From an uncultured bacterium (GTDB lineage: Bacteria > Babelota > Babeliae > Babelales > RVW-14): DNA of 64,000 nt. Below are positions 11,397 through 37,260 of the stretch, in pieces. Position numbers and translations under genes: made by a program. Positions within the stretch are counted from its first letter, which is position 1. Each line of letters starts with the position of its first letter. The stretch spans positions 1,353 through 65,352 of the forward strand of contig CAIKAH010000055.1 of the NCBI GenBank assembly GCA_903825355.1, given 5' to 3'. The notes below the pieces were generated by a model that was given only the letters and a program-made list of their open reading frames with translations, did no database searches and was not told where the DNA came from.

Positions 11397-11403
11397 TTAA
11401 TTC

Positions 11404-12705: not shown

Positions 12706-12711
12706 TTTTTT

Positions 12712-12822
12712 AAGGCATCCGCCGTCACTCATGCAGAGTTATGGCGCGATAAGCTCGCCGTCGTTGGATAGCCTGCTTCATTGCGTGATAGCTTAAACGA
12801 GCGAATACGGATGCCTTTTTTC
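12712..12822 (+). other. about 110-nt structured element closed by a perfect 10-bp stem and followed by a T-run (unusual terminator or small RNA)
   Basis: AAGGCATCCG (12712-12721) pairs perfectly with CGGATGCCTT (12808-12817) and is followed by TTTT. The interior has local hairpins (CTC-ATGCA-GAG, TTAT-GGCGCG-ATAA, GCTCG/CGAGC). It lies right after the helicase stop at 12705. Confidence 0.4.
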
Positions 12823-12842
12823 CTTATCAAGTAGCTAGATTT

Positions 12843-13778: not shown

Positions 13779-13799
13779 GCACAACTGTTTTCCTCATAA

Positions 13800-14285
13800 A
13801 TACAATCCTCAATAATAAGCTTTATTGGCAGCATCAGAAGCTTGCTGGCAAATAAGCTTTATGCAAAAGCTTGTAGCACGCTTGATCCTAATAACCTTGA
13901 AGCATCTGCAACTACCTTGGCTTGCCGTGACTCCATAATCATAAGGTTTCTATATACAGTTGATGGCTTTTGAAAATTTATCAAACTTTATATAGAAATT
14001 GTACTTACACGGGCTATTACTGAAAATGGTCCACGGCCGATTATACGTACTGCAGCTCTAAGTAAAATTATTAGTGAAGATGAAGCACGTCGACTTATGG
14101 AAATGGTCATCGAGCGTAACAAAGCTTCCCACATGTACCGCGAAGAAATCGCTGATGAGATAGCAAAGCACCCACCAAAGGCCTACAAACTCATATTTTC
14201 TATTCTTGAGCGATTGCACCAAAATGTATTGGTAAAAGGATGCGAATATTACACCAACACTCGCATATATTCTCGCTCACTGTAG
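13800..14285 (+). pseudogene. eroded HEPN-domain gene (HI0074 / nucleotidyltransferase substrate-binding family)
   Basis: One frame, open from 13800, reads ...RDSIIIRFLYTVDGF*KFIKLYIE...IERNKASHMYREEIADEI... The RNKASH (Rx4H) HEPN motif and the RFEFT..WK..K.YLE-like block are present. There is an in-frame TGA at 13971-13973 where the family has a conserved Trp. No ATG lies near the 5' end. No cognate MNT gene is adjacent. Confidence 0.7.
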
Positions 14286-15181: not shown

Positions 15182-15196
15182 AATGGTGTCATTTTT

Positions 15197-15778
15197 CTAT
15201 GAAAATAATACTTTCACACTTCCGAATAAAATGAGCATAAAAAGTATTGCTAGTAGATTAAAATAGCGGTCAATAAACGTTTGTATTGGCTTACCCCATT
15301 TGTAAATGAGTCCCGCAAGCAAAAAGAACCGTATCCCACGTCCGAGTATAGAAAATCCAATAAAAGAAGCAAGGTCCAAGTGACAAAAACCAGCTGAAAT
15401 AGTCACTGCCTTGTAAGGGACTGGCGTTAACGCTGCAATAAGTACCGCCCAATGCTGATAAAGTGCATATTTTGCCGCAATACTATCAAAAACAGGCTGC
15501 GAGATCAAATGCTGCACAATCCAAGTCCCCACTGTACTCCACATAACCGCACCAATGGCATAACCAAACAGCCCTCCAAATACTGACGCCCCTGTAGCAA
15601 GCGCTGCATAGTAAAACGAACGTGATTGATGTTTTACGCAGTACAAAATTAAGAGGGGGTCTACCGGAATAATCAAGACTGATGCTTCGATAAAAAACAA
15701 AAACAATAGCCATGCAGTTGCCCAGGGGGAGCCTACCTTGCTGCCCATCCAGTCATAAATACGACGAATTATATTCAC
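15197..15778 (-). CDS. YqaA/DedA (VTT-domain) family inner-membrane protein
   Basis: About 190 aa, 4-5 TM. WATAWLLFLFFIEASVLIIPVDPLL matches the YqaA/DedA N-terminal re-entrant motif. Confidence 0.6.
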   Translation of the reverse strand: MNIIRRIYDWMGSKVGSPWATAWLLFLFFIEASVLIIPVDPLLILYCVKHQSRSFYYAALATGASVFGGLFGYAIGAVMWSTVGTWIVQHLISQPVFDSIAAKYALYQHWAVLIAALTPVPYKAVTISAGFCHLDLASFIGFSILGRGIRFFLLAGLIYKWGKPIQTFIDRYFNLLAILFMLILFGSVKVLFS

Positions 15779-15862
15779 TCATTCACCTTTTACCATAAAG
15801 GCCCATACTAACAAACGAGTATGGGCCTTTATATTTATTTTATATACGCACAAGTACATTGA

Positions 15863-17176
15863 TTATTTTGATATCATCAATCTATCAAGATAGCCCTGGA
15901 TATCACCAATAGCCACGCGCTCTTGCTTCATCGTATCACGATTACGAGCGGTTACCATGCCATCAGTTTCTGTTTCAAAGTCGTACGTTAAGCACACAGG
16001 TGTACCAATCTCATCTTGGCGACGATAGCGCTTACCAATAGATCCACCATCGTCAAACTGCACGCGGTAACCTTTAGCTTTTAAATCTAAAAACACCTTC
16101 TCTGCTTTTTCAGACAATTTAGTTGAAAGTGGCATAATTGCTGCCGTATAAGGGGCAACCGCCGGATGAAAGCGCAACACGGTACGTACATCTCCATCAA
16201 CTTCATCTTCATCATAAGCATCAAAAAGCAAGGTCAAGAACAAGCGGTCAACCCCCACAGAACATTCAACCACATGCGGCATATAGGAGGATTTAGTAGC
16301 TTCATCAAATACTCCCAGATCTTTGCCAGAATGCTTACTGTGCTGGGATAAATCAAAATCAGCACGATTAGCTATCCCTTCAAGCTCCTTAAAGCCAAAG
16401 GGGAATTCATATTCAACATCGATACATGCTTTTGAATAGTGCGCTAATTCATCAGATGCATGTGGACGCAAGCGAATACGTTCAGGATTAATACCAAGGC
16501 CCAAGAAAAATTGTTTGCGTCGTTCCACCCAAAGTTCAAAAAAGCGTGCTGCGTCTTCGCCTTTGCAGAAAAACTCCATCTCCATTTGCTCAAACTCACG
16601 CATACGGAACAAAAACTGCTTTGGCGTAATTTCGTTACGAAACGCTTTGCCAATTTGCGCTATCCCAAACGGAACCTTAACGCGAAAGCTACTCATCACA
16701 TTTTTAAAGTTAATAAAAATAGCTTGTGCCGTTTCAGGTCGCAAATAAGCGTCACTGGTAGCATCAGACATAGCGCCGAGTTCAGTTTTAAACATCAGGT
16801 TAAATTGACGCACAGCTGTCCATTGCTTATTCCCACAACTGGGACAATTTTTTTCTAGATCAACATCATCCGCACGATAGCGTTTTTTGCACTGCATACA
16901 GTCAACCATCGGGTCACTGAAATTATCCAAATGTCCAGACGCTTTCCAAACATCAGCGCTACCAAGCAAGGAACCATCGACAAGTACCACCTCTTCAGCA
17001 AAGCTCATCATATGCGTAAGCCAGCGATTCTTGATAGTATGCTTAAGTAAGGCTCCTAGAGGACCACAATCGTAGACCCCATTCAATCCGCCATAAATTT
17101 CACCAGACTGATAAACAAAGCCACGCCGCTTACAGAGCGAAACAATCTTTTCTAGGGTTGCTTTTGATGCTGACAT
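15863..17176 (-). CDS. glyQS: glycyl-tRNA synthetase, dimeric (alpha2) type
   Basis: KRRGFVYQSGEIYGGLNGVYDCGPLG, YLRPETAQ, FRNEITPKQFLFRMREFEQMEMEFF, and a C-terminal anticodon-binding domain. Confidence 0.93.
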   Translation of the reverse strand: MSASKATLEKIVSLCKRRGFVYQSGEIYGGLNGVYDCGPLGALLKHTIKNRWLTHMMSFAEEVVLVDGSLLGSADVWKASGHLDNFSDPMVDCMQCKKRYRADDVDLEKNCPSCGNKQWTAVRQFNLMFKTELGAMSDATSDAYLRPETAQAIFINFKNVMSSFRVKVPFGIAQIGKAFRNEITPKQFLFRMREFEQMEMEFFCKGEDAARFFELWVERRKQFFLGLGINPERIRLRPHASDELAHYSKACIDVEYEFPFGFKELEGIANRADFDLSQHSKHSGKDLGVFDEATKSSYMPHVVECSVGVDRLFLTLLFDAYDEDEVDGDVRTVLRFHPAVAPYTAAIMPLSTKLSEKAEKVFLDLKAKGYRVQFDDGGSIGKRYRRQDEIGTPVCLTYDFETETDGMVTARNRDTMKQERVAIGDIQGYLDRLMISK

Positions 17177-17409
17177 AGTACATTCCCTGTATTTAATAAA
17201 ACTATTCTTAGCTAGAGGGAAAATGTACCGCGATTTGCAGTTTTATGCAATTATGATAGCATTTCCCAGATACTTAGCCTTCTAGCTGTCGACCAAAGTA
17301 TCGAGCAAAAATTTTTTATGAGTCATACGAACAGAGGTCTCTACATACGCTCGAAGCATCTACGCATGTTTCATATCAATTCATCCCTTTTATTTCAAAA
17401 GGAGCCTAC

Positions 17410-18189
17410 ATGTTCAACGCCGATCTATCCATTCGTGGACTTATCATAACCTTACTATTTTTGACAACGGCTCTGTCTGCCACCAATAAGACACCACATT
17501 ACCCCCTACCAATCAACAAATACATCAGTGATTACACAGGCGTCCTTCAACCAGTTGACAGATTAAGCATTACTAGCACGCTCAATAAACACGAAAAAAA
17601 TAGCGGTATAGAAAGCTCTGTTGTTATTATTGATTCAATCAATAGCTATGCCCCTGGCGTTAGCCTTGAATCCTTTACTACCAACCTGTTCAATAAATGG
17701 GGTATCGGCAATCGATCAAAAAATAATGGCGTTTTATTGCTTGTAGCCTTACAAGATCGCAAAGTACGCATAGAGCTTGGCGCAGGATATGGGAAAGCAC
17801 ATGAAAAGGTTGCTGCTGAAATTATCAATAGCACCATGCTTCCATTATTTAAACAAGGTAAAATCACAGAAGCCATTATGGCTGGCAGCAATGCAATCAT
17901 TAAAGCGATAGCCACTCAACCCTCTTCGCCATGGGTTTGGTATTTGATTATTTTGGGCCTCATATTTTTTGGTATCATAGCGTTTTTTTCACTACGTGAA
18001 GCCTTACTGCACGATACTAGCTATGGTTTTACAGCAAAAGATACTGGTCGATCATGGCTGTACTACAGTTTATTTGGCGTTAGTAAACACAATAGGAACC
18101 AAAAAATCCGATCACGCTATTCGGGATACACAGGTAGCTCTTTTAGCGGTGGCCGCTCCAGCGGTGGTGGCGCTAGCGGCGGGTGGTAA
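17410..18189 (+). CDS. TPM-domain (YgcG-like) membrane protein
   Basis: Signal peptide, then a TPM block (ISDYTGVL..., NNGVLLLVALQDRKVRIELGAGY), a TM segment and a Gly/Ser tail ending GGRSSGGGASGGW. Confidence 0.75.
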   Translation: MFNADLSIRGLIITLLFLTTALSATNKTPHYPLPINKYISDYTGVLQPVDRLSITSTLNKHEKNSGIESSVVIIDSINSYAPGVSLESFTTNLFNKWGIGNRSKNNGVLLLVALQDRKVRIELGAGYGKAHEKVAAEIINSTMLPLFKQGKITEAIMAGSNAIIKAIATQPSSPWVWYLIILGLIFFGIIAFFSLREALLHDTSYGFTAKDTGRSWLYYSLFGVSKHNRNQKIRSRYSGYTGSSFSGGRSSGGGASGGW

Positions 18190-18344
18190 ATTAAATCTGT
18201 AAGCAAAGCAAAGCCCCTCTCATTTTTTTGAGCCTTAAGAAGGACCCCCCAAAGCAATATTGCTATTTTACGGTTTTTGTAAACGTGCTAAACTTGCGGC
18301 AAAGTAAATTCCCGTGGCCCTTTATGAATGAAAGAATAATTCTC

Positions 18345-20954
18345 ATGGATTCATTTCAAATACGTCAGAAGTACTTAGATTTTTTTGCTCGCAATGGCCA
18401 TACCGTTGTTGCCAGCTCATCCCTCATTCCAGCCGAAGATCCAACTCTTTTATTCGCAAATGCGGGCATGAATCAATTTAAAGATTGTTTTCTGGGTAAA
18501 GAAAAACGTTCATATACCCGAGCCACTTCTTCTCAAAAGTGCGTACGTGCCGGTGGCAAACACAACGACTTGGACAATGTAGGATTTACCGAGCGTCATT
18601 TGACGTTTTTTGAAATGCTTGGAAACTTTTCATTTGGTGATTATTTCAAAGAAGATGCTATTAGATTTGCCTGGGAGTTTTTAACTACCGAGTTACAACT
18701 ACCAAAAAATGATCTCTATGTTTCAGTGTTTCGGGACGACCAAGAAGCCTATGATATTTGGAATAAACAAATTGGCATTCCTGAGGAACGCTTAGTCCGC
18801 CTTGGCGAAAAAGATAATTTCTGGCAGATGGGCGATACCGGACCATGTGGACCATGTACCGAAATTTATGTCGATCGTGGCGTCAATCGTGGCTGCAAAG
18901 AAGCTAATTGTGCTCCTGGTTGTGATTGTTCACGCTTTACTGAAATCTGGAACCTGGTGTTCATGCAGTTTGACCGACAACAAAATGGCAGCCTCCTACC
19001 ACTAGCAGCAACAGGGGTAGACACCGGCATGGGCCTTGAGCGTCTCTGCATGGTACTGCAAGGTAAAGATAACGTGTACGGCACCGATATGATGCAACAT
19101 TTGATTAAACGCATTGAAGCATTAAGCGGCATTACCTACGCAACAGCCGATAGCAATACGCAAGCAGCATTCAATGTACTCACTGATCACGTTCGATCAA
19201 GCTCATTGATTATTGCTGATGGCTGCACACCAGCAAATGAAGGACGCGGCTATGTGCTGCGAAAAATTATTCGTCGAGCTGCCTTGTTTGCACAAAAGCT
19301 CTCTCCTGACTTGAACCTTTTTGTCGAACTTGCTGATACGTTTATTGATCAGTTTGGCTCTCTCTACCCGGAGCTTGTTGCTAGCCGTGTTCTAATCAAA
19401 AAATTATTATTAGGCGAAATTGAACGCTTCAATAACAATTTGATTCAAGGCCAACACATTCTTGAACGCTACCTTGAAGAAAATGCGAAGGCAAAACGCA
19501 CCCATCTTACCGGTGAGCAAATTTTCAAGCTTTATGATACCTACGGCTTTCCTCCTGAGCTGACGCGGGTATTGGCTCATGAAAACAATCTGACGCTAGA
19601 TATGCCAGGCTTTGAAGAAGAGATGAAAAAACAACAAGCTCAGTCTGGTAAAAAACAGAAGCAAACAGAGCAACTTCTGCTGGTTGCTGATAATGTTACA
19701 ACTACTTTTGTAGGCTATGAAAAAACGAATATTGAAAGCAAAGTTATTTTTGTCCATGATGAAGGCGACACACTCTGGCTTATTACCGAAGAATCACCCT
19801 TTTATGTAGAGTCAGGCGGACAAGTAAACGATGCTGGTACTGTCACCGTGAATGGAGCAACCTACCCGGTTCTTGATCTCAAAAAAGTTGGTGACCTTCA
19901 CCACCCTGCTATTGCAGTAAAAGTATCTGTAGCAAAGCGTACAGGCAACGCAACAGAGCCAATTACAGTTGGCAGCCAAGCACATTGCTGGGTTGACCCC
20001 GTTATACGTACAAATACAGTTAAAAATCACACCGCAACACATATGCTGCAAGCTGCACTTATGAAAATACTTGGGACTTCAATTAAACAAGCAGGCTCTC
20101 TGGTGTGTAGCGAATATTTACGCTTTGATTTTAATCATCACGAAGCACTAAGCAAAGAGCAAGTTGATATTATTGAAACGATGATCAATGATAAGATTCG
20201 TGAAGATATCCGTACTTGCATTTCTAACACCACCCTTGATGATGCAAAAAGCAAAGGAGTAATTTCATTTTTTGGTGAAAAATATAATCCAGAAAATGTT
20301 CGCGTTGTACAAATTCCGGGCTTTTCAGCTGAACTGTGCGGCGGCACCCACGTAGAAAGCACTGGAACAATTGGATGCTTCAAAATAACGAGTGATACGG
20401 CTCTTTCAAGCGGAACTCGTCGAATTGTAGCAATCACAGGCCCTGAGGCATTAAAACTATACCAGCAAACATTTAGTACAACCAAAAAGCTTGCTGAACA
20501 ATTTAAAGTTAAACAAGATGAGGTAGTAGCTGCAGTCCAAAAATTACAGGATGATTTTCACAAACTACAGACTACCTTGAAAACACTTAAAAAAGAGCTC
20601 ATTAAAGCACAATTACCAAACTGGCAACAAACAATTTCCCTTGTAGGAAAAGTGCCTTTCTTGTATCTTGCTGTTGATAATGCCACAATCGATGAGTTGC
20701 GGTTAATCGCTCAAGAGCTTGAAAAAACCAGCCCGGGTCTTTATCTTCTACTCAGCTCTAATAATGAGGAGCGCTGCAACTTCTTGGCTTATGCGGCTAA
20801 AGGCATTGAACAACAGGTTTCGCTCCGAGAACTTGGGGAACTCTTGAAACAGCATGATCTACGCGGTGGCGGAAACGCTACAGCAATTCAAGGAGGTGGA
20901 ACTACTATTCCAGCTAATCTTGAAAGCATATTAAGGCAGTGGTTACAGAAATAA
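18345..20954 (+). CDS. alaS: alanyl-tRNA synthetase
   Basis: The ORF track starts at TTG 18228. AlaRS homology starts at MDSFQIRQKYLDFF (ATG 18345). FANAGMNQFK, the editing-domain HTATHML ... CGGTH, and a C-terminal DHHA1-like region are present. Confidence 0.95.
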   Translation: MDSFQIRQKYLDFFARNGHTVVASSSLIPAEDPTLLFANAGMNQFKDCFLGKEKRSYTRATSSQKCVRAGGKHNDLDNVGFTERHLTFFEMLGNFSFGDYFKEDAIRFAWEFLTTELQLPKNDLYVSVFRDDQEAYDIWNKQIGIPEERLVRLGEKDNFWQMGDTGPCGPCTEIYVDRGVNRGCKEANCAPGCDCSRFTEIWNLVFMQFDRQQNGSLLPLAATGVDTGMGLERLCMVLQGKDNVYGTDMMQHLIKRIEALSGITYATADSNTQAAFNVLTDHVRSSSLIIADGCTPANEGRGYVLRKIIRRAALFAQKLSPDLNLFVELADTFIDQFGSLYPELVASRVLIKKLLLGEIERFNNNLIQGQHILERYLEENAKAKRTHLTGEQIFKLYDTYGFPPELTRVLAHENNLTLDMPGFEEEMKKQQAQSGKKQKQTEQLLLVADNVTTTFVGYEKTNIESKVIFVHDEGDTLWLITEESPFYVESGGQVNDAGTVTVNGATYPVLDLKKVGDLHHPAIAVKVSVAKRTGNATEPITVGSQAHCWVDPVIRTNTVKNHTATHMLQAALMKILGTSIKQAGSLVCSEYLRFDFNHHEALSKEQVDIIETMINDKIREDIRTCISNTTLDDAKSKGVISFFGEKYNPENVRVVQIPGFSAELCGGTHVESTGTIGCFKITSDTALSSGTRRIVAITGPEALKLYQQTFSTTKKLAEQFKVKQDEVVAAVQKLQDDFHKLQTTLKTLKKELIKAQLPNWQQTISLVGKVPFLYLAVDNATIDELRLIAQELEKTSPGLYLLLSSNNEERCNFLAYAAKGIEQQVSLRELGELLKQHDLRGGGNATAIQGGGTTIPANLESILRQWLQK

Positions 20955-20969
20955 CGTAAAGGAGTTTAT

Positions 20970-21614
20970 ATGAATATTGTATACAAAGGGTTATTCACAC
21001 TCAGTCTCTTAAGCAGTAATTGTTTTGCAGTAGATAAACTTAGCTCACTTTCGGACCGATCATCCTGCGCTAGCAGCCAATCGCTAGCATCTATGATGGA
21101 AGATGTGCCAGGAACACCATGCTGCTTTCCGGAACCGTCGCCGGTCTGCAATGATAGCAGTACGGCTCAGACAACTGTTTATCTAGTGAATAACACGGAA
21201 TTCACAATTGATATATATGATATAACAACAGCGAAAAGAATTTATATATCACCTACTACCGAACTCACAGACGCCCAGAAATTTATCTGTTACGGAAAAG
21301 ATCCTACTGTGCAGTTAAGTTCTAATGATTATCATCTAATATACCAGCTATCGCTTGTAGGAAGCTTTGTCGTGCTTACTATCACCAATGCTACCCCATT
21401 GCAGGAAAGCATAGAATTAGAAGAAAAAGACACCGAAGATGAATCTAAAGACGGTTTATCTGAGCTACCTTCTAAAGATGAAATTTCACGCAAATTAGGC
21501 GTATCTACCCCAGCAGGAAGCTGGTCCCCACTACCAGGCTCTCCTGTCATACGAGGATGGTCTCCAGCCAGTGGAAGCACGCAAATACTCCGACGAGGCT
21601 GGTCTCCCCAATAA
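20970..21614 (+). CDS. secreted hypothetical protein with a C-terminal triple (S/G)WSP motif
   Basis: GGAG SD, signal peptide (LLSSNCFA/VD), an acidic linker. The C-terminus reads AGSWSPLPGSPVIRGWSPASGSTQILRRGWSPQ. Confidence 0.6.
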   Translation: MNIVYKGLFTLSLLSSNCFAVDKLSSLSDRSSCASSQSLASMMEDVPGTPCCFPEPSPVCNDSSTAQTTVYLVNNTEFTIDIYDITTAKRIYISPTTELTDAQKFICYGKDPTVQLSSNDYHLIYQLSLVGSFVVLTITNATPLQESIELEEKDTEDESKDGLSELPSKDEISRKLGVSTPAGSWSPLPGSPVIRGWSPASGSTQILRRGWSPQ

Positions 21615-26603: not shown

Positions 26604-26819
26604 AAAACCCTCTTGTAAGTTGTATAATTACCTGCAAAGAGTATAGGGGAAAAAGATATTTTTTCATAATCAGACTTTAAAAGAATGTTTTTATTAACCC
26701 TGATTAGAAATTATTTTCTATCTGGATAATTAATACTCGGCCTCTCCTGAGAAAACAAACCCGCGCTTAAGCAAAGTAATAATATAAATCAAAATAGCCA
26801 GGAACTATCCCCTCCTCTT

Positions 26820-27461
26820 TTAATCCGTACACCTAGCAACCTTTCCTTTCCAGACAGGATTGATCCAACCCATTATCAAATCATCCTCTAGCGCACCTGT
26901 TTTACTAACTATTCTATTTTTTAATCGCCCTTCCTCGACAAAACCTACGCTGGTATACACTTTAATCGCACCTAGGTTAGAAGCCCGTACAAACAACTCC
27001 ACCCGAGCGACATCTGCATAGGCAACATCATCAAAGCATTCATCCTCAATCTTCCTTAAAAAGGTTGTCCACAATGCCGTCGCAACCCCTTTTCTAAACC
27101 AAGTAGGATGAGTAAGCGTTGTACCATCACGTAGCGTATGCCGAAGCGAATCAGGACCAGCACAAAACTTTGATACTGCGCCAATAATCATATCATCCGT
27201 ACACGCTACAAGCATTAAGCCTGATGTCAACGATTTATCAACCAGCTCAGCAACATATTCTTCTGTTATTTCTTCTGGTCGACGCGCCAAGCCTCCATCT
27301 ATGCCAGCTGTTGCTCGATACAACTCTAGCAAGCCCGCAACATCTTCTTTTACCACAGCCCGTACCACATAGGGAGATTCTGTTGCTATAGCTGTCGCAT
27401 TTATTTTCATCATTACACCTGTTAACAACATACCAATAACCACCATTTTAACCTTCATCAT
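26820..27461 (-). CDS. GNAT family N-acetyltransferase with a hydrophobic N-terminal extension
   Basis: GNAT C-terminal pattern (VELFVRASNLGAIKVYTSVGFVEEGRL). The N-terminus MMKVKMVVIGMLLTGVMMKINATAIA is signal-like. An internal start at M17/M18 (about 27413) is also possible. A 4-nt overlap couples it to the upstream Lrp gene. Confidence 0.65.
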   Translation of the reverse strand: MMKVKMVVIGMLLTGVMMKINATAIATESPYVVRAVVKEDVAGLLELYRATAGIDGGLARRPEEITEEYVAELVDKSLTSGLMLVACTDDMIIGAVSKFCAGPDSLRHTLRDGTTLTHPTWFRKGVATALWTTFLRKIEDECFDDVAYADVARVELFVRASNLGAIKVYTSVGFVEEGRLKNRIVSKTGALEDDLIMGWINPVWKGKVARCTD

Positions 27462-27928
27462 TTTAATCCTTCTTTAATAACCTCCGGAATATCTATAGCG
27501 CGTTCTTTGGGTACAGATAGCACAATAATTGTTCTTGTGCGCATAATGCCCGGGATTGATTTTATTCGTTCATTTAAAAAATAATCCAAATGTTTACTGT
27601 TCATACAGACCACTTTCAGCATGTAATCATCATCACCAGTCACATGCAAACATTCCAGCACCTCTGCTGCATTTTGCATCTGCTGGATAAATTCGGCTCT
27701 ATGCTGAGGATGCGCAAGCGTTACAAAAACCATAGCGGTCAAAGCAAAGCCTAGCTCCTGGTAATCAACCATAGCAGCATAACCCTGAATCACCTTGGCC
27801 TTTTCAAGTTTTTTGATTCGCTCCGTTATTGAGGGAATCGAAAGCTCACACTGTGCCGCAAGGTCAGTCAGCGTTGCTCGGCCATTTTTTAAAAGCTCAG
27901 ATAAAAGATTAAAATCTAATGCGTCCAT
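27458..27928 (-). CDS. Lrp/AsnC family transcriptional regulator
   Basis: LDALDFNLLSELLKNGRATLTDLAAQCELSIPSITERIKKLEKAKVIQGY (HTH_AsnC), followed by an RAM/ACT-like C-terminal domain. Confidence 0.9.
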   Translation of the reverse strand: MDALDFNLLSELLKNGRATLTDLAAQCELSIPSITERIKKLEKAKVIQGYAAMVDYQELGFALTAMVFVTLAHPQHRAEFIQQMQNAAEVLECLHVTGDDDYMLKVVCMNSKHLDYFLNERIKSIPGIMRTRTIIVLSVPKERAIDIPEVIKEGLK

Positions 27929-28087
27929 ACAAAAACTCCTTATTTTATAAACATATATTCATTGTATTTAAATATAAAATAAGTTCAAGTATTATTTTTA
28001 TATTGTATTTTAAGGCAAAATGAATTAACAATGTTAAAAATTGCTGTTTTATGCATTTCTGGCCTGTGGCCATTTTTTAAGCAGGAT

Positions 28088-28129
28088 TGCAGACTCAGGG
28101 ATGGCCTTGAAGACGGGCCTGAGTCTGCA
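28088..28129. repeat. perfect 12-bp inverted repeat with an 18-nt spacer
   Basis: TGCAGACTCAGG (28088-28099) and CCTGAGTCTGCA (28118-28129). It lies directly 3' of the truncated murJ copy (stop at 28139) and shares the CTCAGG/CCTGAG flavour of the dispersed repeat cores. Confidence 0.7.
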
Positions 28130-28138
28130 GATCTAACA

Positions 28139-29188
28139 TCATCGCTTTAAGAAATAGACGTTCACGCCAAACAATTTTCTGGTTGCAAACAGCAATCCAA
28201 TGGATCCTGCGGCCACAGCGATCGTGTACACCCAATAGCCAATGCCATCGGCAAGCATGCCTTGCGTGCCAGCAGGCAAAAAGTGAGACCCCAACTGAGC
28301 AACGGCATAAGCACTAAGAGCACAGAGCAGAATCTGGATCACATAGCGCATTAAGAAGCGCGCGTACATCCCCGCATGAAAATTAACGTGGTGCTTTACC
28401 TTCAATAGTGAAAAGAGCGTAATTGACATAGCAATTGCCGAAATACTATTTGCTGCAGCAATCCCATCCGCACCCCAGTAGTACATCCCCACCAAGTCAC
28501 ACCCAATATTGATACTTGCACACAGCGCCGCTGCCTTGGTTGCCGACCAGGTGTCTTTGAGAGCGTAGAACATACTCAGCAGCACTTTGTTCAAGCAGAG
28601 GAACAAAAGCCCCACGAGGTACAAAATCAAAATCACCCCCCCCTGATGAATCTGTTCGGGCGTTGCTTTACCGTTGAGCAGAAACTCAAAGAGCGGCTCT
28701 GCAGTGATAATTAAAAAAATAGTCGCAGGAATAATGACCCAAGTAACCAATTTGGTGACCTCCAGCAAGTAGAATTGCAGCCGACGTGGCGCGTACAGCA
28801 CCAAGCGCGAAAAATGTGGCAAAAGCACACTAGACAACGCTACAGCAAACATCCCCAGCGGAATATTCATAAACCGCGCGCCGTAATACAGCAGCGATAC
28901 CGACCCTTTTGGCAAGTACGAAGCAATGCTCCCACTAATGAACATGTTCAGCTCAAAAATACTGACCCCAAACAAGCATGGCAAAAACTTGGTGAGGACT
29001 GTTTTAAAAGCTGCTTTGGCGGCTGTATCGATAGGAGCAAAGGTAAATCCTTCTAGGCGTAGGCTGGAAGCTTGTCGAATGGGCGAAGTCCGAATAGAAC
29101 GAAAACAAGCGGGGCAAGCTTTACGTAATCCCTCTTTCTTGGCTCTTTGGCCGGCGGCGTTCAGAACTTGTGTTCTGTATTTCGACAA
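28139..29188 (-). CDS. truncated MurJ paralog (C-terminal lobe only); intact ORF, but possibly a pseudogene
   Basis: The last ~300 aa align without gaps to residues ~215-518 of the full MurJ (31988..33544) at about 90% identity. The first ~50 codons and the only available start (TTG 29188) come from dispersed-repeat sequence. The next in-frame ATG is well inside the homologous region. Confidence 0.6.
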   Translation of the reverse strand: MSKYRTQVLNAAGQRAKKEGLRKACPACFRSIRTSPIRQASSLRLEGFTFAPIDTAAKAAFKTVLTKFLPCLFGVSIFELNMFISGSIASYLPKGSVSLLYYGARFMNIPLGMFAVALSSVLLPHFSRLVLYAPRRLQFYLLEVTKLVTWVIIPATIFLIITAEPLFEFLLNGKATPEQIHQGGVILILYLVGLLFLCLNKVLLSMFYALKDTWSATKAAALCASINIGCDLVGMYYWGADGIAAANSISAIAMSITLFSLLKVKHHVNFHAGMYARFLMRYVIQILLCALSAYAVAQLGSHFLPAGTQGMLADGIGYWVYTIAVAAGSIGLLFATRKLFGVNVYFLKR

Positions 29189-29205
29189 GCTCAGGCTGAG
29201 CGTGA
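29057..29205. repeat. dispersed composite palindromic repeat, copy A (both arms present)
   Basis: The left arm AGCTTGTCGAATGGGCGAAGTCC (29069-29091) is the exact reverse complement of 33590-33612. The right arm is TTCAGAACTTGTGTTCTGTATTTCGACAAGCTCAGGCTGAGCG, with the core at 29181-29202. Confidence 0.8.
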
Positions 29206-29528
29206 TTCAAAATTCCTCATGGTTTCAAAAGAGGTCTAATTTTAGACCTGCAAAAGCCTATTTTGCAAAAACAACAAAGCCTTTTTACCTCTAGATCATA
29301 CAGTAAGGCTTTTGTAAATAAGGTGATTTTTCTGATAAACGCTAAGATTTAAGATTAGAAAAAATAACCCCGAGATATTACGTGCCAATCTTGCATTCAT
29401 CGATCCAGGGTAGAAATTACTCACTAAAAAAGTATTTTTTGAGCCTTTTATCCATTTTTTTGCTTTTTTAAAATATTCAAATAGAATAATAAATCTATAT
29501 TGGCTAATTATTGAAAATGGAGCCTGCC

Positions 29529-31094
29529 ATGAATAAGTACTCTTTAACACATCTAGTAGTTGGTTTTTTGCTAGCACTTGCTAGCACTACATCACTTGAT
29601 GGTGCCAAAAAAAATCTTCTAAAGCGTGAGCATTCTTCTAGTCCCGTCTTGGTTGAAAACCCATTATTAAAGCACCGCAGAGTCGCACCACCAGCAGATG
29701 AGCTTATCGATGCACCATTGACCATTCAACCAAGCACAAATACTTTACCTGCACGAACCACTGTTCTTATGCAGCCTGCGCCGGCGGCACCGCAAATAAC
29801 AATGCCAATATTTTCTCGAACAATGCATCGCGAAGCTGCGACCGTCAGAACAACAACTTCAGGTGCTGCAGTTATTGCTTCATTGCCAGCAACAGTTCCT
29901 ACTGTAACGAATCTCATTGAGGATACAAAAACAGGTAACGTCTTGGCAGTAAAACACTTACTAAGCTCTGGCGCAGACGTCAACCAGGTAGATGATGAGG
30001 GCTTTACGGCCTTAATATGGGCAACCTGCAAAGGACACCTAAAAATCGTCCGCCTCCTACTCGATGCAGGCGCTGACCCAAACGCCACTTCTCGCAAACA
30101 GCGGGTTACAGCTTATATGTACGCTCATTTCTACAAAAAAATAGCCATTGCTCGCAGTCTAAAAGAGCACATAGTGCGCCAGTGTGGTGACAACGAAGAG
30201 CTAGCCAGATCCATCATGATACAGCAAGAACTTGCACTGATAGAATCTAGAGGAGCACGCTCCACGAAAGCCAATCTCTGCCCCATATTAACGCAAGAAA
30301 TAGCTCCAGTAATTGCTCAGGTCAGCGCAAAAATGGGAGGGCCTGAACACTTCACTATCAAGTATGACAACTCAATATCGCCATCTACTTGCCCCGCAAC
30401 AGAGACCATTTTCATTACATCCCAAGTAATCAGACAGCTGCTGACAAATATTCCAGAAGGTAAAAAAGAACAGTATAGCGCTATTTTTGCTGACATAATT
30501 GCACACGAAATTGGTCATAACATTGATCCAGAGTGGCACCAAACCAAAGCGGTAATGGAAAACCGAAATACCTTTTTTAAAAAATTATTGTCCAGATTAA
30601 CTACCTTAAACCTCAGTGTTCCAGCTCTTCTCTTAGCACTTGCACACAGTGACACACATATCGAACTCGCAACAGCTGTTTTTACAGGAGCCATGTGCGG
30701 CTCGACAGCGCTAGTAGCACTTAACCAATTAAACAATCTTAGACTTCAACGTAAGTTAGAATACAACGCCGATCGTTTATCTTTAACGGGCGGAGAAGAT
30801 GTAGCTACCGCTCCCGCACGATGGGCTGAGCTATTCAAAAATGCAGAAAGGTACATGCACGACTTGATAAAAACAGATTGTGCTAACGCTCTCTCACAAG
30901 CGAAAGATGCTTTCGTACAAAAATCACCATCAATGCTTTGGGAAGCCACGAAAACAGCAGGACTTGCCGGCTGTAAGTGGCTTTATATGCACGGGCCAAA
31001 TTGGATTAGAATTCACCCTCATGATGAAAAACGCATTAAACACATTCAAAAACATGCTAAACTCATGACTGGGGCAGCGAATGCTGCCGAGTAA
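29529..31094 (+). CDS. secreted ankyrin-repeat + M48-family zinc metallopeptidase fusion protein
   Basis: ATG 29529 has GGAG 6 nt upstream (the ORF track starts at TTG 29511). Signal peptide (LVVGFLLALASTTSLDGA). Two ANK repeats (GNVLAVKHLLSSGADVNQVDDEGFTALIWATCKGHLKIVRLLLDAGADPNA). HEIGH at 30504-30518, two hydrophobic helices, EYNAD, and a C-terminal IHPHDEKRI. This is the HExxH / ExxAD / HPxxxxRI triad of M48 peptidases. Confidence 0.8.
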   Translation: MNKYSLTHLVVGFLLALASTTSLDGAKKNLLKREHSSSPVLVENPLLKHRRVAPPADELIDAPLTIQPSTNTLPARTTVLMQPAPAAPQITMPIFSRTMHREAATVRTTTSGAAVIASLPATVPTVTNLIEDTKTGNVLAVKHLLSSGADVNQVDDEGFTALIWATCKGHLKIVRLLLDAGADPNATSRKQRVTAYMYAHFYKKIAIARSLKEHIVRQCGDNEELARSIMIQQELALIESRGARSTKANLCPILTQEIAPVIAQVSAKMGGPEHFTIKYDNSISPSTCPATETIFITSQVIRQLLTNIPEGKKEQYSAIFADIIAHEIGHNIDPEWHQTKAVMENRNTFFKKLLSRLTTLNLSVPALLLALAHSDTHIELATAVFTGAMCGSTALVALNQLNNLRLQRKLEYNADRLSLTGGEDVATAPARWAELFKNAERYMHDLIKTDCANALSQAKDAFVQKSPSMLWEATKTAGLAGCKWLYMHGPNWIRIHPHDEKRIKHIQKHAKLMTGAANAAE

Positions 31095-31122
31095 TAGCTT
31101 TTTTAATTCAATGCCTGAGAGC

Positions 31123-31656
31123 TCATATCGCTAATACTGAATACCCCCAAGGTCCATATTGATACTCCATAGCCGCCGGGGCGCAAGCACCAAGCCAATG
31201 GCGCTGGCCACGCTGCTTATCACCCCCGCAAGGAATAACAGCCGCAGCCTTGCAGTCATCACATTTAATAGCAAATTCACGCGCTTGCCGCTGCATAAAT
31301 TCATCTATTTCTTCAACCGCTCCTACTTGATACACCGTTTTCATCACAACTAGAGGGGCTACACAAATTTTCAAATCGCTAGCTTCGCAGGCAAGCCCAG
31401 AAAGTACTTTATAAAATAAGGCTAATAAAACATGTGCATAAGATGTGGGTCGCATGCAGCTCGTACAGATAACTGTTGCTTTTCTACCTGGAAATCGTTT
31501 GTTTTCAAAATCCCAACAAGTATTCATAATTTCCTGACTTTCCGCGCCAGCCACCTCAAGCCGTTCCAAATACCATTGCGGATGGGGTGATATTGAAAAA
31601 CTGCTTAGGCTGCCCATACAACAAATTATAAATGCAAAAATTGCAAAACGTTTCAT
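31123..31656 (-). CDS. secreted Cys-rich protein, paralog of 31676..31945
   Basis: Signal peptide (FAIFAFIICCMGSLSSFS), about 12 Cys. Shares the pattern CxxC-x(~27)-VAP-x(~30)-CxxCK-x(2-5)-PC with the neighbouring small ORF. Confidence 0.6.
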   Translation of the reverse strand: MKRFAIFAFIICCMGSLSSFSISPHPQWYLERLEVAGAESQEIMNTCWDFENKRFPGRKATVICTSCMRPTSYAHVLLALFYKVLSGLACEASDLKICVAPLVVMKTVYQVGAVEEIDEFMQRQAREFAIKCDDCKAAAVIPCGGDKQRGQRHWLGACAPAAMEYQYGPWGYSVLAI

Positions 31657-31675
31657 CCCTTACCCCCCTCTTGTC

Positions 31676-31945
31676 CTACAAACTTTCTCCCTTATCCTCT
31701 ATCCGCTGCTCTATTACTGCATTCCAGCATGGCACTTTTTTGCATCCAGGACATTCTAAATGAAAGCCATTTGCTAGAGCAAGCATCGCACTATCTAGCG
31801 GCCCTCTGGTCATAAACTTCATTTTTAGTGCCTCTATCACTACTGGAATCAAATGCGGTGCAACATACTTGGCTAATTCTATCGCTAGTGAAACAAATAG
31901 CTCAACGCCATCAACTTTTCTTGCACACATACTGCACTCTATCAT
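31676..31945 (-). CDS. small four-Cys protein without a signal peptide
   Basis: 89 aa: CSMC ... YVAP ... CPGCKKVPC. Lies 43 nt downstream of murJ on the same strand. No clear SD. Confidence 0.5.
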   Translation of the reverse strand: MIECSMCARKVDGVELFVSLAIELAKYVAPHLIPVVIEALKMKFMTRGPLDSAMLALANGFHLECPGCKKVPCWNAVIEQRIEDKGESL

Positions 31946-31987
31946 GTTTACAGCTGGCAGGTAAAATCTCTAGTTACTTATTCATTT

Positions 31988-33544
31988 TTACCGCTTTAAA
32001 AAATACACATTTACGCCAAATAGCCGCCGGGTCACAAACAGCAACCCAATAGCACCAGCAGCAATAGAGATGGTATACACCCAGTAGCCAATGCCAGCGG
32101 CAAACATGCCTTGCGCTGCGATAGGCAACACTTTGCAAGCAAGATACGCAAGAACATAAGCGCCCAAGGCACATAGCAGAATTTGGGCCACATAGCGCAT
32201 TAAGAACAACGCATATGGCTTGAGGTGAAAATTAACGTGGTGCTTTACTTTCAAAAGAGAAAAAAGCGTAATTGACATAGCAATTGCCGAAATACTGTTA
32301 GCAGCTGCGATCCCATCGGCACCCCAATAGTACATTCCCACCAAGTCACACAAAATATTTATACTCGCACACAGCGCTGCCGCTTTGGTCGCAGACCAGG
32401 TATCTTTAAGAGCATAAAACATACTGAGCAGTACTTTGTTCAAACAGAGGAACAGCAAGCCAACCAAGTACAAAATTAAAATCATGCCACCCTGATGAAT
32501 TTGATCGGGCGTAGCCTTGCCATTGAGCAGAAATTCGAAAAGCGGCTCAGCCGTGATAATTAAAAATATAGTTGCAGGAATAATAACCCAGGTAACAAGC
32601 TTGGTTACTTCAAGCAGGTAAAAGTGGAGGCGACGCGGGGCATATAATACCAAGCGAGAAAAGTGTGGCAGCAGCACACTGGAAAGGGCCACTGCAAACA
32701 TACCAAGGGGAATATTCATGAATCGAGACCCATAGTACAGCAACGAAACCGAACCTTTTGGCAAGTACGAAGCAATGCTCCCACTGATGAACATGTTAAG
32801 TTCAAATATGCTTACGCCAAACAGACAGGGCAAAAATTTAGTTAGCACTGTCTTAAATGCAGCTTTTGCCGCCGGATCAATGACGCCAAACGTGAACCCT
32901 TGCTTAAAATACATAAATAGGTGCAGCAAAAACTGCACAAAGGCCCCAAAAATAATCCCTCCACACAAATACGTTGCTGGAAGCTGATAGCCCAAACACA
33001 ACAACAACGTGCCTATAAAAATCACATTCCAGAGAGGCGTGCCCAGCGCAGGAATAAAGAAATGATTTACTGAATGCAAAGCCCCACCAAGGAGCGCACA
33101 GCTGGAAATAAAGAGCAGGAATGAAAATAAAATTTGTACAAACGGGATGGCATAGCCAATTTGCTCAGCAGAGAACCCTGGTGCAACCACATTGATAACC
33201 CAATCGGCTTTGAGTAACACAAAACCGTACATCAGGAGAATGATGCCTTCAAAGAACAAAAATGAAAGCGTCATGAGCCCACTGGCCTCGCGCTTGTTAT
33301 TTTCTTTGACTGTTTTGACAATAACCGGCACAAACGAAGCGCTCAGCGCGCCTTCGGCAAAAACATGCCTGAAAAAATTGGGAATGCGAAATGCTGCAAT
33401 AAATGCATCAGATACGGCACCTACGCCAAAATAGCGTACCATTAAAAATTCTCGCATTACGCCAAGAATACGGCTAAAAAAAGTCAGAATAGCTACCTGA
33501 ATAGTCTTACGGACAATTGATCGTTTGCTGAGCTGCTGACTCAT
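31988..33544 (-). CDS. murJ: lipid II flippase MurJ (MviN)
   Basis: 518 aa, about 14 TM. N-terminal FSRILGVMREFLMVRYFGVG..SDAFIAAFRIPNFFR is the MurJ/MviN signature. Confidence 0.92.
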   Translation of the reverse strand: MSQQLSKRSIVRKTIQVAILTFFSRILGVMREFLMVRYFGVGAVSDAFIAAFRIPNFFRHVFAEGALSASFVPVIVKTVKENNKREASGLMTLSFLFFEGIILLMYGFVLLKADWVINVVAPGFSAEQIGYAIPFVQILFSFLLFISSCALLGGALHSVNHFFIPALGTPLWNVIFIGTLLLCLGYQLPATYLCGGIIFGAFVQFLLHLFMYFKQGFTFGVIDPAAKAAFKTVLTKFLPCLFGVSIFELNMFISGSIASYLPKGSVSLLYYGSRFMNIPLGMFAVALSSVLLPHFSRLVLYAPRRLHFYLLEVTKLVTWVIIPATIFLIITAEPLFEFLLNGKATPDQIHQGGMILILYLVGLLFLCLNKVLLSMFYALKDTWSATKAAALCASINILCDLVGMYYWGADGIAAANSISAIAMSITLFSLLKVKHHVNFHLKPYALFLMRYVAQILLCALGAYVLAYLACKVLPIAAQGMFAAGIGYWVYTISIAAGAIGLLFVTRRLFGVNVYFLKR

Positions 33545-33566
33545 GCGACTCCCCTTAAAGAATTTA

Positions 33567-33630
33567 GGCCCGCTCTTTTTAGCCCCAATGGACTTCGCCC
33601 ATTCGACAAGCTCAGGGTGTGAGCGGGATA
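33567..33630. repeat. dispersed composite repeat, copy B (in the lolD-murJ spacer)
   Basis: GGCCCGCTCTTTTTAGCCCCAATGGACTTCGCCCATTCGACAAGCTCAGGGTGTGAGCGGGAT, with the core at 33602-33627. Confidence 0.8.
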
Positions 33631-33654
33631 AAAAATAGACGCTGATAGCTTAAA

Positions 33655-34341
33655 TTATTTAGGGGGCTGGTCAAGCAAAAGAGCACCGTGCTCAAGCACA
33701 TAAACTATCTCCATGCGACGGTAGACTGCAGCGTCATGCGAACAGATAACCACACCCATTCCCTCGGTTTTATTTGCTTCAAGCAAAATATCAACCACCA
33801 ACTGAGCATTGTCTTCATCTAAATTGCCGGTAGGCTCATCGGCGAGCAAAAATGCTGGCTTATTGAAAAGCGCACGCGCAAGAGCAACGCGTTGTTGCTG
33901 CCCCCCAGAAAGTTCTGGCGGGAAGGCCTGTGCTTTATCACTCAGTCCAATCAGCTGTAGCAGTGCATGTGCTCGCTCCTTGCATAGATCATCAGAAAGC
34001 CCTTTTACACGCCCAGGGAGCATAATATTTTGAATGATGGGCAGTTCATTAACCAAATAATGAGCCTGAAAGGCAAACCCTATCGTATTTTGCAAAAACT
34101 CACGCCCCAAAGATGCAATCGATATATCATTAAGAAGGACCTCTCCTTGAGTGGGAACATCCAAACCACCAAGCAGGTGCAAAAGCGTAGACTTACCACT
34201 CCCTGAAACACCACGAATAGCATAGGTTTTCCCTTGCTGAAAAGAGCAGGATATCTTTTCAAAAACGGGTCCCGCCTGTGCAGAGGATTCATATATTTTT
34301 TTTACCGACTTGAGGACTAGATTTTTTACTAAATTGGCCAT
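33655..34341 (-). CDS. ABC transporter ATP-binding protein (LolD/MacB/FtsE-like subfamily)
   Basis: Walker A GVSGSGKST, signature LSGGQQQRVALARAL, Walker B LLADEPTGNLD. About 228 aa. No permease gene is adjacent. Confidence 0.85.
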   Translation of the reverse strand: MANLVKNLVLKSVKKIYESSAQAGPVFEKISCSFQQGKTYAIRGVSGSGKSTLLHLLGGLDVPTQGEVLLNDISIASLGREFLQNTIGFAFQAHYLVNELPIIQNIMLPGRVKGLSDDLCKERAHALLQLIGLSDKAQAFPPELSGGQQQRVALARALFNKPAFLLADEPTGNLDEDNAQLVVDILLEANKTEGMGVVICSHDAAVYRRMEIVYVLEHGALLLDQPPK

Positions 34342-36915: not shown

Positions 36916-36931
36916 ACGTATTTCTTTTTTG

Positions 36932-36968
36932 ACGGGCTGCTGGGGGAAAAGCAGTCCGTTTCTTTTTT
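36932..36968 (+). terminator. rho-independent terminator of lon
   Basis: ACGGGCTGCT / AGCAGTCCGT stem (one mismatch), 8-nt loop, then TTCTTTTTT. Confidence 0.75.
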
Positions 36969-37032
36969 AAACCAATATCAAGCTTATTTCAAAGCTCTAG
37001 CAAAAGGTATAAACATACTAGACTGATGCGAT

Positions 37033-37130
37033 TGCCCCGCTTTTTCTCGTCCTATCGGACTTTGCGCATTCAGAACTTGCATTCTGTATTTCACCTTGCG
37101 GTATTCTTCGACAAGCTCAGGGTGAGCGAG
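37033..37130. repeat. dispersed composite repeat, copy C
   Basis: TGCCCCGCTTTTTCTCGTCCTATCGGACTTTGCGCA + TTCAGAACTTGCATTCTGTATTTC... + TTCGACAAGCTCAGGGTGAGCG (core at 37107-37128). The 61-aa ORF 36984..37169 is its spurious translation. Confidence 0.8.
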
Positions 37131-37260
37131 GATAATTTTATTACTGAAAGCCAATTTAGATAGTTTCAAAAAAGATCTAATATCTAATTATCTAATCTCG
37201 AAAAAAAGGTTATTGACACCCAACTCAAAAGTATTCGCTATATAAAAATATAATACACAA

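Follow-up and report, generated by a model that had tools for sequence, protein, structure and literature searches.

The window analyzed here, a 64,000-nt stretch of DNA from an uncultured member of the Dependentiae (TM6), carries a full-length murJ gene and, downstream of it, a second, diverged copy of the murJ 3′ half. This half-copy, denoted murJ′, is probably a 5′-truncated piece of murJ from a different, unsampled Dependentiae lineage, that is, a xenologue, which was joined in as the left end of a 2.36-kb block of DNA. We read the event as an ordinary recombination scar at a hotspot downstream of murJ.

The two copies of murJ

The features that define the two copies are:

31988-33544, minus strand: resident full-length murJ, 518 aa (PF03023, TIGR01695, orthologue in the sister contig L008, solved structures)
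28139-29052, minus strand: murJ′, 5′-truncated, probably xenologous murJ fragment, codons 215-518 plus stop (gapless match to 31988-32901)
29053-29188, minus strand: repeat-derived 5′ extension of the murJ′ frame, TTG at 29188 and then 45 codons (open reading frame list, sequence reading)
28088-28128, minus strand: strong stem-loop immediately following the stop codon of murJ′ (dG −18.1 kcal/mol, z = −4.0)

Judging from its sequence, the resident gene encodes a predicted member of the MurJ/MviN lipid II flippase family. It matches PF03023 (2.3e-86, Pfam) and solved MurJ structures (E = 3.5e-50), passes the curated TIGR01695 cut-off over the full length (325.8 bits against 235.55, model positions 1-495), and shows 96% amino acid identity to the L008 orthologue. 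Direct reading of the upstream DNA identified a Shine-Dalgarno-like sequence, AAGGGGAG, ahead of this gene.

The diverged, colinear repeat of the murJ 3′ end described in an earlier, sequence-only reading of this DNA was confirmed: positions 28139-29052 match 31988-32901 at a constant offset of 3,849 nt with zero indels. The copies are 78.4% identical across 912 coding nt (79.2% over 891 nt by blastn, E = 0.0) and share 272 of 304 amino acids (89.5%), the differences being mainly at synonymous sites. murJ′ falls below the TIGR01695 cut-off (154.5 bits against 235.55), covering only model positions 205-496; the MurJ N-lobe (TM1-6), required for full-length membership in this family, is absent, and eight C-terminal hydrophobic segments are present. 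The break lies within a hydrophilic stretch, between hydrophobic segments 193-211 and ~237 onward, which we take to be the loop connecting the two lobes of MurJ. The stem-loop that follows the stop codon is probably the terminator of the donor murJ.

An indel block relative to the sister genome

The contig L008 comes from a sister genome with ~90% nucleotide identity to the window and shows the same layout, Lon-lolD-murJ-4Cys-4Cys-AnkM48-repeat, lacking only window positions 26693-29052 with murJ′, the hairpin, asnC, and the GNAT gene. By blastn, L008 6569-14486 is colinear with window 36975-29053 and L008 14584-21270 with window 26692-20000, and the 97 nt in between (L008 14487-14583) are missing from the window. 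The indel and its junction are thus directly observed relative to L008, the one sister contig that represents the “empty” state; from this comparison, we infer that the event was an insertion into an L008-like ancestor. The block and the segment between the two murJ copies comprise:

26693-29052: indel block, 2,360 nt in place of 97 nt of L008 (14487-14583; blastn colinearity)
27458-27928, minus strand: Lrp/AsnC-family regulator (asnC), within the block absent from L008 (Pfam)
26820-27461, minus strand: GNAT acetyltransferase, with a 4-nt overlap with asnC, within the block (Pfam, PHROGs, NCBIfam)
29529-31945: accessory islet common to the window and L008 (AnkM48 and two Cys-rich open reading frames)
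29529-31094, plus strand: ankyrin and M48 peptidase gene, AnkM48 (Pfam)
31123-31656, minus strand: Cys-rich open reading frame, 177 aa
31676-31945, minus strand: Cys-rich open reading frame, 89 aa

The segment between the copies had been described as a 2.8-kb accessory cassette. The islet genes are found in L008 as well, so this “cassette” is older shared sequence, and murJ′ belongs to the 2.36-kb indel instead. Its gene content was described correctly, with an ankyrin/M48 gene and two small Cys-rich open reading frames, except that BLASTP gave no clear support for the paralogy of the latter two (E = 0.024 over 27 aa). The proposed comparison of the lolD-murJ locus among relatives separated the two elements, L008 having the islet genes without the half-copy and L014 having neither; the islet genes are absent from both of the more distant contigs, L014 and L015. 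No integrase or recombinase was found among the open reading frames between the copies in Pfam, PHROGs, and NCBIfam searches, and an Rfam and a tRNA scan covering all of the window gave no hits, leaving no tRNA or structured-RNA integration target.

The block itself is a mosaic, with asnC close to its homologue in L017, and GNAT and murJ′ distant from everything sampled, so that a single donor and a single event may not account for the whole block. The asnC product is 92% identical to that of L017 (dS 0.51) and the gene has an ordinary GC3, whereas the GNAT protein is only 62% identical to the L017 neighbor. In L016 and L017, homologues of asnC have different surroundings, and the asnC-GNAT homology to these contigs starts only at 28016; positions 28017-28138 (~120 nt, including the stem-loop) have no counterpart in any fetched locus. 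The donor layout murJ-hairpin-asnC-GNAT was not found in any of five asnC homologue contexts, none of which has murJ upstream, nor in MurJ scans of genomes (7 loci) and metagenomes (12 loci). Identity to L008 is 80.5% over the first 200 nt past the right junction, against ~90% elsewhere. Each of the relatives examined has a different zone downstream of murJ, and the window and L008 share mosaic tracts of 98-100% identity which, at the level of sequence comparison, show that inter-lineage recombination is ongoing at this locus.

The left junction and the dispersed repeats

The left end of the block coincides with a member of a small family of dispersed repeats:

29053-29115, minus strand: REP-A2, truncated MITE/REP-like unit, the last ~34 nt missing (in L008 these end in GGGTGAGCGGGG)
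29129-29204, plus strand: REP-A1, second repeat unit, facing REP-A2; also in L008 (91.7% to L008 14337-14408)
33567-33630, plus strand: REP-B, between the lolD-like gene and murJ; also in L008 (93% to L008 9915-9985)
37034-37131: further related repeat unit

The units are 60-110 nt long, intergenic, and bounded by 7-nt terminal inverted repeats (CCCGCTC/GAGCGGG). Being short, non-coding, and present in multiple intergenic copies with such termini, they can be classified as putative REP/MITE-like elements. Four units fall in a span of 8 kb, and indel junctions relative to L008 coincide with two of the three repeat loci; the elements were seen in the window and L008 lineages only. They matched no Rfam family, and no transposase was noticed among the window open reading frames scanned. 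They had originally been described as palindromic but are not strong palindromes: single units fold no better than shuffled sequences (z −0.4 to −0.8), and the palindromic look of 29053-29204 comes from two units in facing orientation.

Homology of the short copy to murJ ends at 29052/29053, exactly at the start of a repeat unit, and a related unit lies upstream of the full murJ at 33567-33630, both as initially noted; the unit at 37034-37131 is another one. The first 41 nt of the truncated unit (29053-29093) are 100% identical to L008 14446-14486; past this point, L008 runs on into the element end and the window into murJ′. The junction cuts REP-A2, which is intact in L008, bluntly, and the joint (29053/29052; CCTAG followed by AAGGATTT) contains 0-1 nt of shared sequence. 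Because the unit is complete in L008 and truncated in the window, this state could not have arisen by simple deletion in L008. No repeat was found at the right junction (26692). REP-B is inverted relative to REP-A2 (a 23-nt perfect inverted match, 29069-29091 against 33590-33612), which excludes unequal crossing-over between these repeats as the source of a direct duplication. Thus, of the repeat-mediated rearrangement originally proposed beside murJ, the rearrangement and the breakpoint at a dispersed repeat stand, and mediation by homologous recombination between repeats does not.

The junction is reproducible across independent assemblies. L033, from a different metagenome assembly and another sample, spans the joint between the repeat and murJ′ at 99.9% identity, and the gene order is repeated in two further contigs, the entire layout being found in contigs of 12.5 and 3.3 kb from other samples. 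An assembly artifact, or the merging of two co-occurring strains into a chimera, is therefore extremely improbable, even though the contig is metagenome derived and short-read assemblies break at the 66 nt that are most similar between the copies (28385-28450), with an N-gap in L033 and the start of L034 at 28384; the joint itself offers no shared sequence that could mislead an assembler. An apparent 56-nt deletion in L033 proved to be a 10-N scaffold gap rather than a real variant. In one assembly (the third contig), only a 163-aa open reading frame is called for murJ′, and a 1-nt difference in spacing might point to a frameshift variant.

The most likely mechanism would be homology-facilitated illegitimate recombination (HFIR) with the homologous locus of a diverged relative. 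The block, consisting of the 3′ 913 nt of the donor murJ, the terminator-like hairpin, asnC, and GNAT, would have been joined into the variable region that separates murJ from the conserved 389-aa/ABC/PBP backbone. On the left, an illegitimate blunt end-join would have cut the MITE-like unit. The loss of recipient DNA would amount to 97 nt in all, and the donor fragment would start in the middle of murJ by chance.

Ancestry of murJ′

Pairwise dS and omega values were estimated by the Nei-Gojobori method, and a neighbor-joining (NJ) tree was built with 300 bootstrap replicates. The dS between murJ′ and the resident murJ is 1.70 (omega 0.045), compared with 1.46 (omega 0.042) between murJ′ and P0001, the murJ of another species, and 1.60 (omega 0.050) between the resident gene and P0001. 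The divergence of murJ′, a directly observed pattern, therefore resembles that of functional orthologues from different species. Over the region equivalent to murJ′, the resident murJ and its L008 orthologue differ by a dS of 0.17 only. In the NJ analysis, murJ′ was the sister of P0001 in 239 of the 300 replicates and of the resident and L008 pair in 53, and never (0/300) of the resident copy alone. GC3 of murJ′ is 0.557, the top value among 53 open reading frames of the window (z = 4.0). In a sliding-window comparison with five relatives, no stretch of murJ′ exceeded 92% identity, suggesting that the donor lineage is unsampled. Gene conversion between the copies was considered and rejected, the longest identical runs being 32, 32, and 23 nt, with no extended tract.

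These results overturn the original interpretation of the half-copy as a duplication of the resident murJ. In-genome segmental duplication was rejected because the copies are not mutual closest relatives, the orthologue from the sister genome being nearer to the resident gene. A variant of this scenario, in which an ancient, repeat-mediated duplication of the resident 3′ half was retained over a long period and then disappeared from the sister lineage, would account for the direct orientation, the indel-free colinearity, and the repeat units near both copies. We consider it very unlikely, given that murJ′ branches outside the resident and L008 pair and is a GC3 outlier, that L008 has an intact repeat unit at the position of the joint, and that the two repeat units are inverted.

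A mirror-image event, analogous to C-terminal displacement, is unlikely. Under this scenario, the stretch murJ′-hairpin-asnC-GNAT-389aa would be the remnant of the former resident locus: an incoming segment from an L008-like relative, murJ-4Cys-4Cys-AnkM48-repeats with its end inside REP-A2, would have recombined homologously upstream and become joined illegitimately to the old murJ midway along that gene, whose 3′ half would thereby have been displaced downstream. Such a route gives the exact order observed, as well as an intact repeat unit in the donor, and similar logic has been proposed for orphan 3′ ends of Rhs and type VI secretion system (T6SS) genes (PMC5361080). The tracts in which the window and L008 are nearly identical (dS ~0.02) cover the 4Cys genes and the 3′ portion of the full-length murJ, and asnC has a native-like GC3 and diverges from L017 at the backbone level. 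However, a resident murJ inherited vertically is predicted to show the backbone dS of 0.4-0.5 relative to the murJ of L008, whereas murJ′ shows 1.9 and an outlying GC3. Furthermore, AnkM48 and the repeat region are only 68-92% identical to L008, so that L008 was not the donor, and at least one additional, earlier import is required. The import of murJ′ from an unsampled lineage remains our preferred reading.

Coding potential of murJ′

With the repeat-derived extension, the murJ′ frame comprises 349 codons and starts at a TTG inside the repeat, the sole upstream start. On reading the sequence of this frame, we found that it lacks a Shine-Dalgarno sequence and that no ATG occurs in frame ahead of codon 82. 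By our own estimate, ~11% of random 45-codon stretches are open, and hence the open frame of the extension is not significant. A promoter scan detected a promoter-like site at 29268-29239, with a hit rate at the chance level, the number of promoter-like sites not being above that in shuffled sequences. murJ′ retains all 34 of the 34 family columns conserved at ≥95% and has only 5 lineage-specific amino acid changes, which implies little time since truncation; the recent origin of murJ′ would explain both the intact frame and the conserved residues. We infer that murJ′ is probably not a functional gene.

Expression of murJ′ from the repeat TTG as a stand-alone protein consisting of the MurJ C-lobe and TM13-14, acting as a modulator, decoy, or half-transporter, appears quite unlikely. 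The 349-codon frame is intact and other assemblies annotate it as a gene, with just the 163-aa open reading frame called in one. Every highly conserved residue of the C-terminal half is kept and omega is low, but divergence within a full-length gene of another lineage explains the low omega just as well. The break in the stretch assigned to the inter-lobe loop and the basic N-terminal tail (11 K/R and 1 D/E in the 45-codon extension), which is compatible with the positive-inside rule, would suit such a protein, as would the promoter-like site; against it stand the chance-level hit rate of that site and the lack of a Shine-Dalgarno sequence and an ATG start. There is no further murJ fragment in any of 32 related loci, and a protein search yielded no half-length members of the MurJ family besides contig-truncated ones. 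The more specific proposal that an eight-helix C-lobe (TM7-14) is expressed from the repeat 5′ end, either as a modulator or decoy for a MurJ-targeting factor or as a half-size MOP-superfamily transporter, is improbable. If it were true, the inter-lobe break and the conserved residues would reflect selection rather than recency.

The intact 304-codon frame, the inter-lobe break, and the omega of 0.04 are also expected of a selected half-gene and, as such, count against a remnant.

Implications and comparison with known systems

The locus provides evidence of recombination between lineages of uncultured, host-dependent Dependentiae, with a hotspot beside murJ that combines illegitimate joins with near-identical tracts, and a small family of MITE-like repeats at two indel junctions. 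For annotation and binning, caution is warranted since the 349-aa “MurJ” open reading frame is a fragment, within which short-read assemblies break. The significance would be greater only if the half-protein is made and selected. A literature search on Dependentiae plus MurJ found no papers.

The integrative elements e14 and phage 21 replace the 3′ end of Escherichia coli icd. As in that case, a diverged, mostly synonymous direct repeat of the 3′ end of a gene brackets a DNA segment at the murJ locus. The repeat here is 913 nt long and ~21% diverged, in contrast to the icd system. A site-specific integrative element with 3′-end replacement was rejected, given that no integrase or recombinase is encoded between the murJ copies and that L008 has the bracketed genes without a second copy. 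The repeat units resemble REP/MITE repeats in being small and intergenic, with terminal inverted repeats, and in lying at rearrangement breakpoints, and differ from them in having no Rfam match, no stable hairpin, and no transposase noticed in the window.

Orphan 3′ modules produced by C-terminal displacement are known from effector loci of the Rhs, CDI, and T6SS types (PMC5361080, citing Jackson et al. 2009). The arrangement is similar: a full gene is followed by a direct, 5′-truncated, diverged copy of its own 3′ part with different cargo. However, murJ is a housekeeping flippase rather than a polymorphic toxin, and there is one fragment and no array. Assignment to this type was rejected, there being no toxin tip/immunity pair; the downstream genes encode an AsnC regulator and a GNAT protein (Pfam).

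HFIR has been described for Acinetobacter, Streptococcus pneumoniae, Pseudomonas stutzeri, and E. coli (PMC3240628); primary references are listed in PMC5361080. Here, unlike in those cases, the event is deduced from comparative genomics of uncultured organisms, and the homologous anchor tract is not clearly visible. The murJ locus resembles HFIR products in the net insertion of foreign DNA with a short loss of recipient sequence (97 nt here), in the single illegitimate joint with 0-1 nt of microhomology, and in the apparent source, the homologous locus of a diverged relative.

Gene order and reality of the truncated murJ copy

By its MurJ homologues, the window belongs to Candidatus Dependentiae (TM6, Babeliales). 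The locus carries a full-length resident murJ and a 5'-truncated second copy (murJ') in the following order:

Lon, divergent from the minus-strand array, first in order
33655-34341, minus strand, lolD-like ABC ATPase
31988-33544, minus strand, resident murJ
after resident murJ, minus strand, two small Cys-rich ORFs
after the Cys-rich ORFs, convergent, ankyrin and M48 peptidase gene (AnkM48)
between AnkM48 and murJ', repeat units
28139-29188, minus strand, murJ' (frame including a 5' extension)
next after murJ', minus strand, asnC, then GNAT
after GNAT, minus strand, 389-aa ORF
end of the array, ABC exporter, class A PBP and AlaRS

The two murJ copies form a colinear, indel-free match at an offset of 3849 nt, as the sequence-only reading had observed: identity rises from a background of 0.2-0.3 to 0.6-0.97 over 28139 to ~29050 and then drops. 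No other self-match found by blastn in the window comes close to this one (891 nt, 79.2%, E = 0.0). Elsewhere, 46792-48471 and 48531-50174 (minus strand) are tandem paralogous Na+/H+ antiporter-family genes (559 and 547 aa; ~66-69% nucleotide identity), and ORF 6116-7807 contains a 51-nt direct repeat (6560-6610 and 6638-6688, 84% identity) encoding a low-complexity Pro/Thr/Ala/Val-rich segment.

The murJ' junction is not an assembly artefact. L033, a contig from a separate assembly (ERZ18644840), covers window 29343-28451, including the joint, at 99.9%, and then 28384-27123; it is interrupted only by a 10-N scaffold gap (L033 894-903) over 28385-28450, the 66-nt stretch of highest similarity between the murJ copies. 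Another contig, L034, begins at 28384, and gene order is the same in contigs from ERZ1426820 (12.5 kb) and ERZ1426837 (3.3 kb). Together, these contigs make an assembler chimera an unlikely explanation. Short-read assemblies break or N-gap exactly at 28385-28450 (L033, L034), a practical hazard when binning or annotating the locus. On the ERZ1426837 contig, the fragment is annotated only as a 163-aa ORF (equivalent to ~28139-28630), and the distance between AnkM48 and the stop codon is greater by 1 nt; either a frameshift variant or a scaffolding artefact may account for this.

Origin of murJ'

The products of murJ' and resident murJ share 272 of 304 amino acids, and the genes show 37, 16 and 144 differences at codon positions 1, 2 and 3, respectively (dN 0.076, dS ~1.7, near saturation, omega 0.045). 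Full-length murJ orthologues from separate lineages differ in the same way: against P0001, the murJ of another species, resident murJ shows dS 1.60 (omega 0.050) and murJ' dS 1.46 (omega 0.042), whereas over the same region dS between resident murJ and the orthologous gene of the sister contig L008 is only 0.17. Among 300 neighbor-joining bootstrap replicates, murJ' was sister to P0001 in 239, to the resident-L008 pair in 53, and to resident murJ alone in none. The GC3 of murJ' (0.557) is the highest among 53 window ORFs (mean 0.363, sd 0.048), and in a sliding-window comparison with five relatives, no stretch was >92% identical to any sampled lineage. Thus, murJ' is a xenologue from an unsampled source lineage and not, as initially proposed, a duplicate of the resident gene 3.8 kb away. 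The match seems to stop at the stop codon because, with dS saturated, homology of non-coding flanks is undetectable.

A probable younger indel beside an older cassette

The sister contig L008 (JGI, 43.8 kb; dS per gene versus the window 0.25-0.5) encodes Lon, a lolD-like protein, murJ, 89-aa and 150-aa ORFs, AnkM48, a 386-aa ORF, ABC and PBP. By blastn, its positions 6569-14486 correspond to window 36975-29053 (91.9%) and 14584-21270 to window 26692-20000 (88.6%). The sole structural difference across these alignments is that 97 nt of L008, absent from the whole window, are replaced by window 26693-29052, a block that contains murJ', then ~120 nt of unique sequence including a strong hairpin, and finally asnC and GNAT. 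Since L008 contains the cassette (AnkM48 and the Cys-rich ORFs) without the block, the cassette genes would be older, common sequence and the half-copy part of a separate, younger indel; bracketing of the cassette by murJ duplication as one event is not upheld. Among more distant relatives, L014 has murJ, a 323-aa ORF and ABC, with neither cassette nor block, and L001, L003 and L013 carry still other genes downstream of murJ; this zone is a variable hotspot.

Codon 151 of the Cys-rich ORF 31123-31656 (minus strand; window 31204-31206) is a sense/stop polymorphism, CAG (Gln) in the window (177 aa) and TAG in L008 (150 aa), in DNA otherwise 99% identical. A third repeat unit (37034-37131) lies at another indel: Lon and the next gene are separated in the window by only 345 nt (36916-37260), which contain this unit, and the L008 region compared with it (5490-6628) includes a 320-aa ankyrin gene.

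The repeat noted at the 5' end of murJ' was recovered, with relatives at 33567-33630 and 37034-37131 (repeat 23-mer: two occurrences versus zero expected). In murJ sense, the left joint reads ...GGACTTCGCCCATTCGACAAGCTTCCAGCCTACGCCTAG / AAGGATTTACC...; L008 is the same for the 41 nt up to the joint and continues with GTGGCTACGGCGGACAGGCAGGGTGAGCGGGGGG, which is how units of this family normally end (as at 37034-37131). At the joint, the last ~34 nt of the unit are cut off, and usable microhomology is lacking. The missing repeat end could not have been regenerated by a deletion in L008, so the L008-type site is probably the older state here. The unit upstream of full murJ has the opposite orientation to the cut one, and the right junction (26692/26693) contains no repeat; unequal crossing-over between repeats is therefore excluded. 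Of the suggested repeat-mediated rearrangement, the position of the breakpoint within a repeat stands, but the repeat was the breakpoint, not the recombination substrate. Overall, the initial observation holds and its interpretation was right only in part.

Homology of asnC-GNAT to L016 and L017 starts at 28016, and relatives carry this module in different surroundings; in L016 it again adjoins the ABC exporter and PBP backbone. The asnC gene is close to that of L017 (dS 0.51), whereas GNAT is only 62% identical, and murJ directly upstream of asnC was not found in any sampled lineage (contexts of five asnC homologues); the block is therefore mosaic. Compared with L008, the window shows alternating tracts of high (98-100%; 33176-32377, 31976-30977 and 29976-29577) and lower (68-92%) identity, and the Cys-rich genes show dS 0.02 versus 0.4-0.5 for the backbone. 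The locus appears to recombine often between lineages, and the mosaic identity in 29577-33176 suggests that Dependentiae lineages have recently exchanged DNA by homologous recombination. The 3' part of AnkM48 (30377-30977) is 68-82% identical to L008 and the 5' part 95-99%; in this putative secreted effector, the contrast reflects a recombination tract or else local hypervariability.

State of the fragment

MurJ consists of an N-lobe (TM1-6), a C-lobe (TM7-12) and TM13-14. The fragment corresponds to residues 215-518, and the break lies within a hydrophilic stretch between hydrophobic segments 193-211 and ~237 onward, which, by alignment to solved MurJ structures and this architecture, can be assigned to the TM6-TM7 cytoplasmic loop. 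All 34 family columns conserved at ≥95% and 90 of 92 conserved at ≥80% are kept, with only five lineage-specific changes; the score is under the TIGR01695 cut-off. The frame runs 45 codons into the repeat, to TTG at 29188, which no Shine-Dalgarno sequence precedes (compare AAGGGGAG before full murJ and AAGGAG before asnC), and promoter-like sites are at chance level. Given the undecayed sequence and lack of expression signals, recent truncation fits best, the low omega probably having been acquired mostly in a full-length gene elsewhere. A functional half-MurJ has a low probability; nothing specifically supports it, and a second murJ fragment is absent from all other loci (32 related loci). 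Directly 3' of the murJ' stop codon lies a very stable stem-loop (28088-28128, minus strand; dG -18 kcal/mol, z = -4); the ~120 nt in which it sits have no counterpart in any of the loci compared.

Mechanism and comparison with known systems

We favor homology-facilitated illegitimate recombination, a type of event described previously (PMC3240628), whereby a murJ-locus fragment from a diverged relative would have been inserted into an L008-like ancestor. The mirror image, C-terminal displacement, for which Rhs and T6SS loci serve as the model (PMC5361080), would yield the same final map but requires a former resident murJ diverged like the gene of another species, in a backbone with dS of only 0.4-0.5, and thus ranks second. 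As the product of recombination, murJ' is a scar of an already known kind.
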